64,000 bases of DNA from Prorocentrum cordatum. Lineage: Eukaryota. Below, piece by piece: positions 38,201 through 40,207 of this stretch. Location of the stretch: assembly GCA_963575745.1 (NCBI GenBank), contig CAUYUJ010000119.1:1-64000 (forward strand), in the 5' to 3' direction. How positions within the stretch are numbered: the stretch's first letter is position 1; the number at the start of each line of letters is the position of its first letter. The position numbers and the translations under genes were made by a program. Below the pieces are notes generated by a model. That model saw nothing but the letters and a program-made list of their open reading frames with translations, searched no databases and had not been told where the DNA came from.

Positions 38201-40207
38201 ACGGAACTGATCGTGTCGGTCACGGGCTCCGGTTGCAGGAAATGTAGGAAACAGGTCGTCCAACAAACAACAGGCATCAAACTGCATGACAAAGATAACA
38301 ACGTGTTCATCCCTAAAACAGCGGCCTCCGTCAAGTACCTAGGGGTCAAGATACGTGAGGACGGAACTTGGACGGAGGAGATCAACTCGCGGCTCAAGGG
38401 AGCCAACATAGTGCATGGCAGATTGTCCGTCAAAGTTTTCAAGAGTGTCCTCAGCCCTCAAGTTCGTATTCGTCTTTGGCAGTCCTTAGTTAAGAGCATT
38501 GCCTTGTATGCGTTAGAGGTGGCGATCTTAACGAAGACGAACATGAGACGGCTGGAACAGTGGCAGAATCGCAAGCTCCGCCACCTGCTGCGTTCCCCCG
38601 CGCACCTGACGCGGATTCCCAATGAGGCGATTCGTCGGAAGGCAAAGGTCTTTACGATTGAGTCGACGCTGCATTACCGTCGGCTACGTTGGTGGCAAAA
38701 AGTAGTTCTTCCTGGTCTGTCTCCTGATAAGCCTGAGTATGATCCGAGTCGGGCAGTACGCAGTGTTATCTTTGGTCGGCTGTCATTCGAGAACCCTCGA
38801 CGATGCGATCGAAGTGGTAGACTAGACCTGTTCGTACGGGACCTTCGAGCGGCCCATGGAAAAGTTACCCAAGAGTGCCGACTTCAGGCCCCGCAAGGGG
38901 CCCCAGACTTGAGCAGAAATTGGATCCAATGGTTTGCGGAGATACCCATTGCAGATTTGAAGAGGGTTTTGAGTTACTCATCGGTATTTGATGGACGACA
39001 GGAGGGAGGAGGAGACGAACCCGTTCCCGAGGTCGAATGCCCAGAATGTGGTCGACGATTTCGAGGCCCCAAAGGTTTAGACGGACACAGGTTTGCAGTT
39101 CACGGAATTGTAGCCAATAGGGTAGGCATTCCTGAAGATCTGTTGCAGCGGAAAGAATGCCCCCATTGCCATCGAGTCTTCGCACGCAAAGACGGTCTTC
39201 TTAAACATCTCCAATGGAAACGTTGCACTAAACTCGTTCCTGCAGCTGCGGTGGCTCAGTCAGCGCAGAATATCGAGAGTGACCTTCCTGAGGCCGCCCC
39301 TCCAGTGCCACCGCCACCTCTCAGAGACCATGTTCGCTCCGCTGGACGAGGCAGTACGCAGGAAGCGCCCCGCCGAGGACGGCAAGGCCAAGGCCGAGGA
39401 CGAGGAAGGGGACATCCAGGCGGCGAAGCTCGGGAAAGCTCTCGCTCGGCTGGTCCTCCAACACGAAGACACGTTGTGCAGCTCCTCGAGGGACGACAAC
39501 TTCGCGATGGCGATGAAGTCCGAGCTGCAGCTGAACCAGGCCCTCCTGAACGGGGCGGACATCTACAACGAGACGGGCAAGAAGGAGCGGAAGGACAAGG
39601 GCGACGACTACAAGGGCCACCCGTTGGGCAAGAAGCCCAATGCGTTCATGAAAATGGTTCTCTTTCGGCTGGCAGAGGCGATGACGGCCAACAGAGACAA
39701 GATCCTCGAAGCCGTGGCTCAGGGTCCAGAGCCTCAAGACACGCAGAAGGCTATCAAGCTGCTTCTCGATCAAGGAGCCGTGGCCAGCGAGAAGGAGTTC
39801 AAGATGAAGGCCACGCGGTGCTTCTTCATCAAGACCGAGGACGGTGCAGGACACGAGCTCACCAAATGGATCTTTGCGCTGAACCATCCCAACCACATCG
39901 CCCTGAGGATGGCCTTCAACTTGATCCGCAACAACGGTTGCTTGGTGGCGATCGGGATCTCGCTGGAGGACGATGCGGGATCGCGCTCCAAGGCAGCCAA
40001 GGAGGTTCAGAGGATTGCGTTCGGGAAGGGCGCAGGGTCGAGCCGAGCAAAGAAAGTGAGGCAGTGAGTTCTAGAGTAGTTGAGACTATCGTGATTAACG
40101 ACTCGAGTGAGGAAGGAGATAGGGTAGAGCCGTCCGGTAGAGTGAGGGTCGGGAGCAGGAGTAGCAAGCAACAGCTCTCGATTAAGAACTTTTTTAGCTC
40201 ACGATAG
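35270..40207 (+). CDS. LINE polyprotein (1645 aa): AP endonuclease, reverse transcriptase, two C2H2-type zinc fingers
   Basis: WSYNV, LCMQST, CIDANG, TIDFI, RDHRPL; YRTINL, QFGALPGRST, VDLEKAFD, GVRQGSVEGP, KFVDD, KYLG; CPECGRRF...H...H and CPHCHRVF...H...C. The frame is uninterrupted. Confidence 0.93.
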   Translation: MFQILLLICCVLLTDNPDSEASAGGRPNPPGPHRGYLEVDSTWEQGRMGGKRAHRHAVRQVHVLGECWYRGRHYTRSTIAALTSLSLALPTEKSTKAPTRRPTTSQRPTPPRKAKNKQILKLWSYNVESVVAIDRIGELLRMARAHEVAVLCMQSTLSTIERPWTSEGFRILPSPRTGPRPKDGCIIAINLKFFTLTEIRCVHIWMPGRLMGVRLRRPGHQERDIYVLNGYSYTDHPPHQVAADQQTDEVRAAHLRGQDQFWQLCSTAIQKVPGICSLIWCIDANGSMAPSLPHVGHAGARRQTQYTTNNGGKLLTILQDTGMQAVNTFGPVRRQNGTWLHTDGKSWRTIDFICTRLQGCYGHHAHPLRQLPVSMGGFRDHRPLQLIFHAGPRVRQRRRETHLRWDRDQLLQDLRWLRDFRPDEHNELPDRIRQLRDGVKAELHRVGISGQWQDECGPQKKYPTPSAYYDQVESVLVDVALPLYKESSRRRCAYKYSDQTLTLIKRKQQVQRMLASTTFGANRSLHQTLLQKYHTLHQESRKAVRSEKRQRAAELVQEAERAQEHGDLRRSASIIKRVAPKPQPPIVTVRDPVTQELAFDSLEDLEIRTKALKDIFEAEELPMDPEGAHQEIPEANYELIGDYELETIESVIMKLPNMKSGPVLKWCDPDTYDDPEQRPPSEGAVAELWKLALPMIQEPVLGVFRASQAFQHVPQRVKNGETVSLRKPKGDGTNARDHYRTINLIGHLGKGFVNATCMGPLRKLAGKMSDTQFGALPGRSTRDAIAIVDEIIRRFRSSAKRSKKEAHFMAAVLVDLEKAFDLLPRHQIWEALQQLALDSGVRLTIEGVHSGTCYVVRDPATNRPARKLLISKGVRQGSVEGPALFIALYDAVTAGIAQDVEAEEFVGVQVVSDPQFQRYRSSDPLDSSIDIADVSQVKFVDDLIGFVITLDFKKISDFLGFIQYAITDRGMRMNIPKTELIVSVTGSGCRKCRKQVVQQTTGIKLHDKDNNVFIPKTAASVKYLGVKIREDGTWTEEINSRLKGANIVHGRLSVKVFKSVLSPQVRIRLWQSLVKSIALYALEVAILTKTNMRRLEQWQNRKLRHLLRSPAHLTRIPNEAIRRKAKVFTIESTLHYRRLRWWQKVVLPGLSPDKPEYDPSRAVRSVIFGRLSFENPRRCDRSGRLDLFVRDLRAAHGKVTQECRLQAPQGAPDLSRNWIQWFAEIPIADLKRVLSYSSVFDGRQEGGGDEPVPEVECPECGRRFRGPKGLDGHRFAVHGIVANRVGIPEDLLQRKECPHCHRVFARKDGLLKHLQWKRCTKLVPAAAVAQSAQNIESDLPEAAPPVPPPPLRDHVRSAGRGSTQEAPRRGRQGQGRGRGRGHPGGEARESSRSAGPPTRRHVVQLLEGRQLRDGDEVRAAAEPGPPERGGHLQRDGQEGAEGQGRRLQGPPVGQEAQCVHENGSLSAGRGDDGQQRQDPRSRGSGSRASRHAEGYQAASRSRSRGQREGVQDEGHAVLLHQDRGRCRTRAHQMDLCAEPSQPHRPEDGLQLDPQQRLLGGDRDLAGGRCGIALQGSQGGSEDCVREGRRVEPSKESEAVSSRVVETIVINDSSEEGDRVEPSGRVRVGSRSSKQQLSIKNFFSSR
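39330..40067 (+). CDS. Overlapping 3' ORF of the young LINE (245 aa), unknown function
   Basis: gaccATG start; GC3-rich codons; globular-looking composition (LARLVLQHEDTL...DDNFAMAM...HPLGKKP). The polyprotein frame over the same bases is R/G/Q/P-rich shadow sequence. Confidence 0.75.
   Translation: MFAPLDEAVRRKRPAEDGKAKAEDEEGDIQAAKLGKALARLVLQHEDTLCSSSRDDNFAMAMKSELQLNQALLNGADIYNETGKKERKDKGDDYKGHPLGKKPNAFMKMVLFRLAEAMTANRDKILEAVAQGPEPQDTQKAIKLLLDQGAVASEKEFKMKATRCFFIKTEDGAGHELTKWIFALNHPNHIALRMAFNLIRNNGCLVAIGISLEDDAGSRSKAAKEVQRIAFGKGAGSSRAKKVRQ

Follow-up and report, generated by a model that had tools for sequence, protein, structure and literature searches.

A conserved gene nested in the open reverse transcriptase frame of a LINE-like retrotransposon of Prorocentrum cordatum

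The stretch of DNA analysed here (the window) comprises 64,000 nucleotides of the dinoflagellate Prorocentrum cordatum (contig CAUYUJ010000119.1 of assembly GCA_963575745.1), whose genome has a reported G+C content of 59.7 % (PMC10666404). This value agrees with the composition of the window; the three spliced-leader relicts of the window and the close P. cordatum homologue of ORFx, both described below, likewise point to a dinoflagellate, either P. cordatum or a close relative. The window carries a single copy of a retrotransposon that resembles a long interspersed nuclear element (LINE), and the subject of this report is the arrangement of its two open reading frames (ORFs). ORF2 encodes a reverse transcriptase (RT) and zinc fingers, and a shorter frame, here called ORFx, lies 3' of the RT and wholly nested in the stop-free frame of ORF2 (Table 1). 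An earlier note, made from the sequence alone, had read this arrangement as a LINE with an overprinted downstream ORF instead of an upstream ORF1.

Table 1 Features of the LINE-like element and its surroundings; positions are those of the window
Feature	Position	Strand	Remarks
Left target-site duplication GGCGACCAGCGCCA	35163..35176	.	14 bp, inside the minisatellite; same 14-mer at 40497-40510
Full-length non-LTR (LINE-like) retrotransposon	35177..40496	+	5320 bp, TTCAAAA end, bounded by the target-site duplication
ORF2	35270..40207	+	stop-free over 1645 codons; comprises an N-terminal region, the RT, the pair of C2H2 fingers and a long tail
Reverse transcriptase domain RVT_1	37454..38353	+	residues 685-984 of the protein starting at 35402
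Two C2H2 zinc fingers	39035..39226	+	residues 1212-1230 and 1252-1272; end the conserved part of ORF2
Candidate trans-splice acceptor CAG	39243..39245	+	putative; after a pyrimidine-rich stretch, 8-14 nt before the starts of the stand-alone contigs
Stand-alone contig stretch	39253..40488	+	putative 3'-coterminal mRNA of ORFx; covered by a single complete contig of about 1.07-1.23 kb per run in three runs
ORF2 tail	39329..40207	+	292 codons; spans all of ORFx and 140 nt beyond
ORFx	39330..40067	+	245-aa basic alpha/beta protein, pI 9.2; +1 relative to ORF2
3' UTR	40208..40496	+	common to the element and the stand-alone ORFx contigs
Right target-site duplication	40497..40510	.	second copy of the 14-mer GGCGACCAGCGCCA

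The element is a young, full-length retrotransposon of the type without long terminal repeats (non-LTR), inserted in a minisatellite, (ACCACCACGACCAGC)n, which occupies 32991-35176 and resumes at 40497-41319, so that the LINE interrupts the array. The target-site duplication (TSD) and the A-rich 3' terminus TTCAAAA enclose ORF2 and ORFx alike. The 14-mer contains the G variant of the satellite unit at both ends and, as the target is itself a minisatellite, the repeat could account for part of the identity between the two copies. A second copy of the element was found in the DNA run X1 (59 differences over 1425 aligned bases, 4 % diverged). It begins at the same base (35176/7) next to a different flank, and therefore the 5' end of the element is considered genuine. 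Neither direct nor inverted terminal repeats were found in the 5320-bp unit. Judged from its sequence, it can be classed as a LINE by the non-LTR type of its RT, the TSD and the absence of terminal repeats. A contig of run X1 joins 35176 to 40552 through eight other letters; this has the look of an empty site, but a paralogous minisatellite unit fits equally well.

The stop-free frame that contains ORF2 spans 33137..40207, and ORF2 proper begins at its ATG. Between 33137 and about 35176, the frame reads through the minisatellite and is no polyprotein. Thus, the nesting of ORFx in a polyprotein frame open to 40207, as proposed in the earlier note, held, and the upstream part of that frame had to be given up. 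Only 93 nt of the element precede the ORF2 ATG and an upstream ORF1 is absent, as the note had also said. Pfam recognized RVT_1 (E-value 2.9e-14; 53.7 bits with a cut-off of 29.6) and zf-C2H2 (E-value 4.5e-5). The PDB sequences matched by ORF2 were RT proteins of R2 retrotransposons only (E-values 0.005 and 0.0064).

ORFx is a genuine gene: it codes for a protein and is subject to purifying selection. Its 245 codons, from the ATG at 39330-39332 to the TGA at 40065-40067, are present where the earlier note had placed them, in the +1 frame inside the open frame. The G+C content at the three codon positions is 0.59/0.39/0.83, and the value at third positions (GC3; 0.825 in ORFx compared with 0.50-0.62 in four segments of the RT ORF) is host-like, in agreement with the note. 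When an exhaustive HMMER search was carried out with ORFx, 125 representative clusters were obtained at E-values of 1e-3 or lower, 69 of them at 1e-10 or lower and 11 at 1e-30 or lower. An alignment of 32 members contains conserved blocks over its full length (LQHE, ARDxN, GHPxGKKPDA, ATRCF, KWIFA and D.APRS..AK), a basic KKRK-like stretch resembling a nuclear localization signal (NLS), and a basic C-terminal tail. The first methionine is nearly invariant, and MF stands at the aligned start in 24 of the 32 sequences.

Differences between the window and the contigs of four runs were used as variant sites; the numbers are small and the copies closely related. Ten such sites fall inside ORFx. In the ORFx frame, six of them are synonymous and the other four are conservative (V>F, R>K, L>I and A>T). 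When the same ten sites are read in the RT frame, one is synonymous and nine are non-synonymous. The finger region contains three variant sites, which in the RT frame give two synonymous changes and K>R. Therefore, selection on protein sequence switches frame at about 39330. A chance ORF was considered as an explanation and ruled out by the 125 clusters, the conserved alignment, this variant pattern and the confident fold described below. The earlier note had named stops in related copies as a result that would refute its proposal; the close copies P0130, P0003 and P0132 all keep the ORFx frame open. P0130 (P. cordatum CAK0789166.1) differs from the window ORFx at 7 of 245 residues and belongs to the 90 %-identity cluster of the closest homologue.

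Three further observations concern members of this family. The gene model of P0130 begins 28 codons before the ORFx methionine, at a codon that aligns to window position 39246 and is ATG in P0130; position 39246 is the first base past the candidate CAG acceptor. Two EukProt sequences labelled Pyramimonas sp. (P0006 and P0131) are ORFx-family sequences filed under a green-alga transcriptome, and as one of them falls in the P. cordatum 90 % cluster, the labels suggest cross-contamination of the Pyramimonas data set. P0021 (228 aa) bears the automatic UniRef name 'RNA helicase' without Pfam support.

The order RT/finger and then ORFx was also observed in four other diverged lineages, so that the linkage which the earlier note had wanted checked was found. 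Two of these are P. cordatum gene models, P0008 (38 % identity to the window RT and 39 % to ORFx) and P0024 (38 % and 34 %, respectively). The other two are ORFs from ENA. P0049 (437 aa) shares 27 % identity with the ORF2 C-terminus and fingers and 35 % with ORFx, and P0134 (480 aa), read by eye, has an ORF2 C-terminal motif and one finger followed by ORFx. Because both parts have diverged alike, co-descent of RT and ORFx appears more plausible than repeated accident, and the comparison indicates that ORFx and the RT are carried together in at least five diverged lineages. When the ORF2 C-terminus together with the tail was used as the query of a homologue search, none of 8000 candidates scored, and a scan of viral contigs gave no relatives. 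From 171 pattern matches, a metagenome scan yielded two loci (L001 and L002), both ORFx-only.

ORFx could also be an ordinary, highly expressed and often retroposed dinoflagellate host gene family that LINEs picked up, or lie next to, without using it. Most of the 125 clusters consist of stand-alone proteins (230-270 aa); of the longer members, 16 were scanned and only 2 of these contain RVT_1. This prevalence is the chief support for a host gene, but it is also the residue to be expected from 5' truncation or from retroposition of a short mRNA sharing the 3' end of the element, both of which would produce stand-alone copies. A host gene, captured or independent, would likewise fit the host-like GC3 of 0.83, which is unlike that of ORF2, and the locus L001, which has no RT within 1.2 kb upstream of its ORFx copy. 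Relicts of the spliced leader (SL), which are described below for two relatives, are typical of any retrogene according to the available text of PMC6050394. However, the similar divergence of the two parts across five lineages (38/39 %, 38/34 % and 27/35 % where identities were calculated), the TSD that encloses both ORFs, and the non-random way in which the ORF2 frame is threaded through ORFx (see below) are all at odds with a gene that is unrelated to the element. In addition, stand-alone ORFx contigs carry the 3' untranslated region (UTR) of the element to within 8 nt of its end with more than 99 % identity. We therefore regard an unrelated host gene as improbable, and a captured host gene is kept as an alternative for the origin of ORFx.

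The next point is how ORFx may be expressed. Family members are found in transcriptomes, namely P0032 and P0046 in MMETSP ('type:complete') and P0006, P0131 and P0081 in EukProt, and many others lie on contigs of 1.0-1.4 kb. The dinoflagellate spliced leader (DinoSL) leaves relicts in retroposed genes, usually at -50 to -100 (PMC6050394, available text). In L001, two DinoSL relicts are stacked at positions 1162-1182, about 105 nt before the ATG at 1287: the exact 15-base junction between them is present, with a decayed SL 3' half behind it. In L002, the first bases of the 1214-nt contig match the SL 3' end with one mismatch and lie 98 nt ahead of the ATG. Stacked remnants, or remnants at the normal distance, are the signature of retroposed trans-spliced mRNAs; the two loci thus support SL trans-splicing of a separate ORFx mRNA in these relatives. 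Upstream of the ORFx retrocopy in L001, positions 400-1100 contain another short-period satellite (CCTTGTACC-like units); like the ORFx copy of the window, that of L001 sits in satellite DNA.

For the subfamily of the window copy, one whole contig from each of three runs belonging to three studies was compared. The contigs of X2, X7 and X8 cover 39255-40488, 39259-40462 and 39253-40325, respectively, with 5-7 differences each and with neither gaps nor loose ends. Their 5' ends fall within 7 nt of each other, at places that the DNA run X1 runs across. At 85 % likeness the same three runs leave 35191-39201 uncovered, and an uncovered part counts as no finding. The first ATG in any frame downstream of 39246 is that of ORFx at 39330. 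The transcriptome members, the SL remnants, the contigs, this first ATG and the CAG at 39243-39245 together suggest a 3'-coterminal mRNA of about 1.2 kb that would be trans-spliced near 39245. The earlier note had suggested an internal acceptor AG near 39325. Its idea of internal trans-splicing gains support from the relatives, but the acceptor does not, because it lies inside the stand-alone contigs, which start about 75 nt upstream (39253-39259); the CAG at 39243-39245 is the better candidate. A DinoSL relict was also looked for in the window copy, at about 39250 (GGTGGCTCAG), and rejected: no match with three or fewer mismatches was found near that position, as expected for a full-length element, and a 10-mer with one mismatch occurs in the window at chance level.

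A different explanation would make ORFx a normally C-terminal domain of the ORF2 protein (ORF2p), joined to it either directly in frame or through a programmed +1 shift near 39320-39330, with the stand-alone copies derived from truncated or dead elements. LINE copies are commonly 5'-truncated, and their 3' parts remain. P0049 and P0134 also count in favour of this explanation, as they fuse the ORF2 C-terminus and finger(s) in frame to ORFx and have no methionine at its start. Two origins are conceivable for them: an indel in a decayed copy, or a lineage in which ORFx forms a C-terminal domain of ORF2. Single indels in decayed copies could have produced both fusions; in the window, no stop interrupts the ORFx frame over the 68 codons before its ATG. 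For a mere domain of ORF2p, however, the nearly invariant first methionine with its MF start, the position of 39330 as the first ATG after 39246, and the SL remnants of L001 and L002 at the normal 5' UTR distance would be hard to explain. The contigs of the three runs start within 7 nt and not at scattered truncation points. Moreover, the RT frame stays open for 292 further codons, which a shift model does not need. Frameshifting, which the earlier note had offered as a second route, is likewise unnecessary since ORFx has a conserved methionine of its own. We consider it unlikely that ORFx is a domain of ORF2p, and a separate gene with its own mRNA is preferred.

Over ORFx, both reading frames are open beyond chance. 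The RT frame contains 0 stops across ORFx where about 5.9 are expected, and zero was reached in 0 of 5000 and 0 of 3000 synonymous-codon shuffles. In the other sense frame, 10 stops were counted compared with about 8 expected. As a control, the ORF at 46463-47527 on the minus strand (GC3 0.87) was examined, and its equivalent frame contains 8 stops against 5.9 expected. This control ORF has 355 codons of host-like GC3 and matches no Pfam family (best E-value 0.17). The depletion in ORFx can be traced to its codon boundaries: T-ending codons stand before codons starting with AA, AG or GA in 0 of 82 cases and before other codons in 19 of 162 (Fisher p = 5e-4), and 12 of these 19 precede C. Past the ORFx stop, the RT frame continues for 46 codons with 0 stops, compared with 4 and 9 in the other frames. 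An antisense frame, 39321..40070, is open too, and its openness is attributed to codon usage alone.

It is nevertheless a serious possibility, though we place it somewhat below even, that the architecture is as proposed and the overlap has no function, ORF2p effectively ending after the fingers and the openness being due to luck and codon-boundary bias. When the estimate was made conservatively by conditioning on the boundary dinucleotides, the probability of zero stops rose to P = 0.036, and a mononucleotide shuffle of the 46-codon extension gave only P = 0.05. Constraint on amino acids in both frames was not found: with nine of ten variant sites non-synonymous, the tail in the RT frame shows none. 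The composition of the tail (R 16 %, G 16 %, S 10 %, Q 9 %, hydrophobic residues 14 %, isoelectric point (pI) 10) is of low complexity and is what GC3-rich DNA yields when it is read off frame. The equivalent frame is closed in the two distant relatives L001 and L002, with 10 stops each where 17.8 and 14.2 are expected. As these counts are also below expectation, the shuffle null may be generous and the depletion in the window may be partly a codon-boundary effect. On the other side stand the Fisher result, the two sets of shuffles without a case of zero stops, the other sense frame and the control ORF, both of which have more stops than expected, and the continuity of an otherwise intact ORF of 1645 codons without a stop from the fingers to 40207. 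Whether ORF2p carries a disordered, RG-rich tail that overprints ORFx, open but free to vary, is on balance an even call.

In the case of the direction of overprinting, ORFx is probably the older frame, and the ORF2 tail would overprint ORFx rather than the reverse, because ORFx is structured and widely conserved and the RT-frame tail is unconstrained, RG-rich and low in hydrophobic residues. The title of the earlier note had the direction the other way round. Near its end (40079-40120), the tail contains VVETIVINDSSEEGD. In this segment acidic and serine residues come after a hydrophobic core, an arrangement that seems to resemble SUMO-interaction motifs.

The structure of ORFx was predicted using AlphaFold2 with the family alignment. 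The fold is confident, both for the whole protein (predicted local distance difference test (pLDDT) 87.4; predicted template modelling score (pTM) 0.77) and for residues 57-235 (pLDDT 94.6; pTM 0.86). In the model, a long N-terminal helix is followed by a beta-alpha-beta-beta-alpha-beta core with a three-helix insert after the first core helix. The protein, described as helical-looking in the note, does have these helices, but the model is alpha/beta and not purely helical. When the domain model was compared with 48,161 chains using VIA-align, the RNA recognition motif (RRM) of human L1 ORF1p ranked first and second, weakly: 2yko_A with Z 4.7, a root-mean-square deviation (rmsd) of 3.3 and 84 aligned residues, and 2w7a_B with Z 4.5, rmsd 4.6 and 92 aligned residues. 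Other RRMs (UPF3 and the ORF1p nuclear magnetic resonance entry 2ldy) reached Z 3.7-3.8. For the full model, the wide VIA-align results were mostly single long helices with Z below 6, and the weak top Foldseek results were ferredoxin-like folds such as Cas6. The model thus suggests an RRM/ferredoxin-like fold, and the likeness to ORF1p, which fits the earlier proposal of an ORF1 analogue, is a lead that is too weak to claim homology. Apparently, ORFx represents a widespread unnamed family whose predicted fold is confident and a new variant. From its pI of 9.2, the NLS-like motif, the basic tail and its place in a retroelement, it is most likely that ORFx would serve the element as a nucleic-acid-binding or chaperone partner.

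Compared with LINEs of the L1 type, in which ORF1p consists of a coiled coil, an RRM and a C-terminal domain (CTD; Pfam Transposase_22), the element likewise combines a non-LTR RT ORF with a small basic protein, and the predicted core of that protein has a beta-alpha-beta-beta-alpha-beta topology, for which the L1 ORF1p RRM is the best, though weak, structural match. The differences are that ORFx lies 3' of the RT ORF and inside the ORF2 frame, whereas the ORF1p gene lies 5'; that ORFx lacks a Pfam match and has a helical bundle inserted after its first helix; and that ORFx is probably translated from its own mRNA, whereas L1 ORF1p is made from a bicistronic RNA. To our knowledge, LINE accessory proteins are encoded upstream of ORF2.

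Another dinoflagellate LINE with an unusual accessory ORF is SymbioLINE-Dnmt of Symbiodinium (de Mendoza et al. 2018, PMC5890265), transcription of which is reported to be biased to the 3' end of the element. There, the accessory ORF precedes the RT ORF, as a classical ORF1 does, and its product is a cytosine methyltransferase; the available text of that paper describes no downstream or overlapping ORF. The DinoSL-tagged retrogenes and the multi-gene transcripts resolved by SL addition (available text of PMC6050394 and PMC10666404) resemble the ORFx relatives in their DinoSL remnants, one of which is stacked; the difference is that in the window copy the trans-spliced unit would sit inside a retrotransposon transcript and inside ORF2. 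The literature search turned up a single 'third ORF', namely the antisense ORF0 of primate L1 (PMC5203782, available text). It gave no account of a LINE in which a conserved ORF follows ORF2; the library searched was partial and supplements were excluded, so this is no proof. Overall, the RT core of the element is an ordinary one. What sets the element apart is its unusual gene order, the unnamed protein family of ORFx, the probable use of trans-splicing for expression and the probable overlap.

The explanation that we favour, with little more than even confidence in it as a whole, is that of a LINE without ORF1 that carries a conserved 3' ORFx with its own SL mRNA, a role like that of ORF1p and an overlap with ORF2. 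Internal SL trans-splicing near 39245 would yield an mRNA of about 1.2 kb that is 3'-coterminal with the element. It would also turn 39330 into the first AUG, so that ORFx could be translated from its own mRNA. The product, with its basic RRM/ferredoxin-like core, helical insert, KKRK stretch and basic tail, would act as a nucleic-acid partner, as ORF1p does in L1. The short mRNA, bearing the 3' UTR of the element, could itself be retroposed, giving ORFx-only copies with SL relicts such as L001. The ORF2 frame would continue past the fingers through ORFx, which it reads in the -1 frame, to 40207 and add the disordered RG-rich tail.

Besides the low constraint and composition of the tail, the closed frames in the relatives and the two borderline probabilities given above, several results weigh against this explanation. 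The N-terminal region of ORF2 gave no endonuclease family by Pfam (E-value up to 1, including Exo_endo_phos) or among PDB sequences (E-value up to 10); by eye, 35618-36520 resembles an APE domain. P0049 and P0134 have finger(s) and ORFx in one frame with the ORFx methionine missing, and the GC3 of ORFx fits a host gene too. The kind of run is not on record for X2, X7 and X8, one of which is guessed to be RNA, and contig ends are a weak hint only. No SL junction, cap or 5' end was seen for the window copy. All fold matches of the domain model have Z below 5, which is under the trust level of the tool itself, and Foldseek gave no match in the PDB at E-values of 1e-3 or lower for either the full or the domain model. 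No Pfam family, including Transposase_22, was found on ORFx at E-values of 0.1 or lower; PDB sequences searched with the ORFx family profile gave nothing below E = 0.9; and a Protein Atlas search with ORFx gave no usable match. As there is no family, PDB or Atlas match, the proposed function has position, charge and topology as its basis.

A more far-reaching version is suggested by RNA viruses, which have 3'-coterminal subgenomic mRNAs and overprinted genes in which one frame is structured and the other disordered. The element resembles them in having a downstream gene on a putative shorter RNA that shares the 3' end, and two frames in the same DNA. It differs in being a cellular retrotransposon, and its short RNA would come from trans-splicing and not from a viral polymerase. 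In this virus-like version, a downstream RRM-like gene would have replaced ORF1 and be expressed from an SL-capped subgenomic mRNA, ORF2 would truly read through, and the ORFx-only half-element would multiply by itself. We put it forward tentatively, as it is rather unlikely in full. If true, multiplication of the half-element would explain the abundance of the family in dinoflagellate transcriptomes.

Some further features of the element and the window were noted. In the shared 3' UTR, about 80 nt before the end of the element, an imperfect hairpin (CTGAAAC ... GTTTTCAG) at 40397-40415 could be a recognition structure for the RT. The minisatellite has a periodicity of 15/18/33/51 bp, and one of its frames reads as His/Asp/Gln-rich repeats. 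Contigs with similar minisatellite repeats had a high summed depth in X2, X7 and X8 and continued into unlike sequence. Elsewhere in the window, three DinoSL relicts (1825-1845 and 20545-20565 on the plus strand, 50727-50747 on the minus strand; 1, 3 and 2 mismatches, respectively; 0 expected by chance) mark retroposed genes or SL-related loci.

A conserved downstream partner that is overlapped by ORF2 would be a new way to express two proteins from one retroelement and, if ORFx is expressed by trans-splicing, this two-protein solution would be tied to dinoflagellate mRNA biology. ORFx and the ORF2 tail also form a clean natural case of overprinting, one that allows the older frame to be distinguished from the younger. 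Retroposition is reported to have shaped about a fifth of dinoflagellate genes (PMC6050394, available text). The protein machinery of dinoflagellate retroposition is barely described, and ORFx is a concrete candidate for a part of it.

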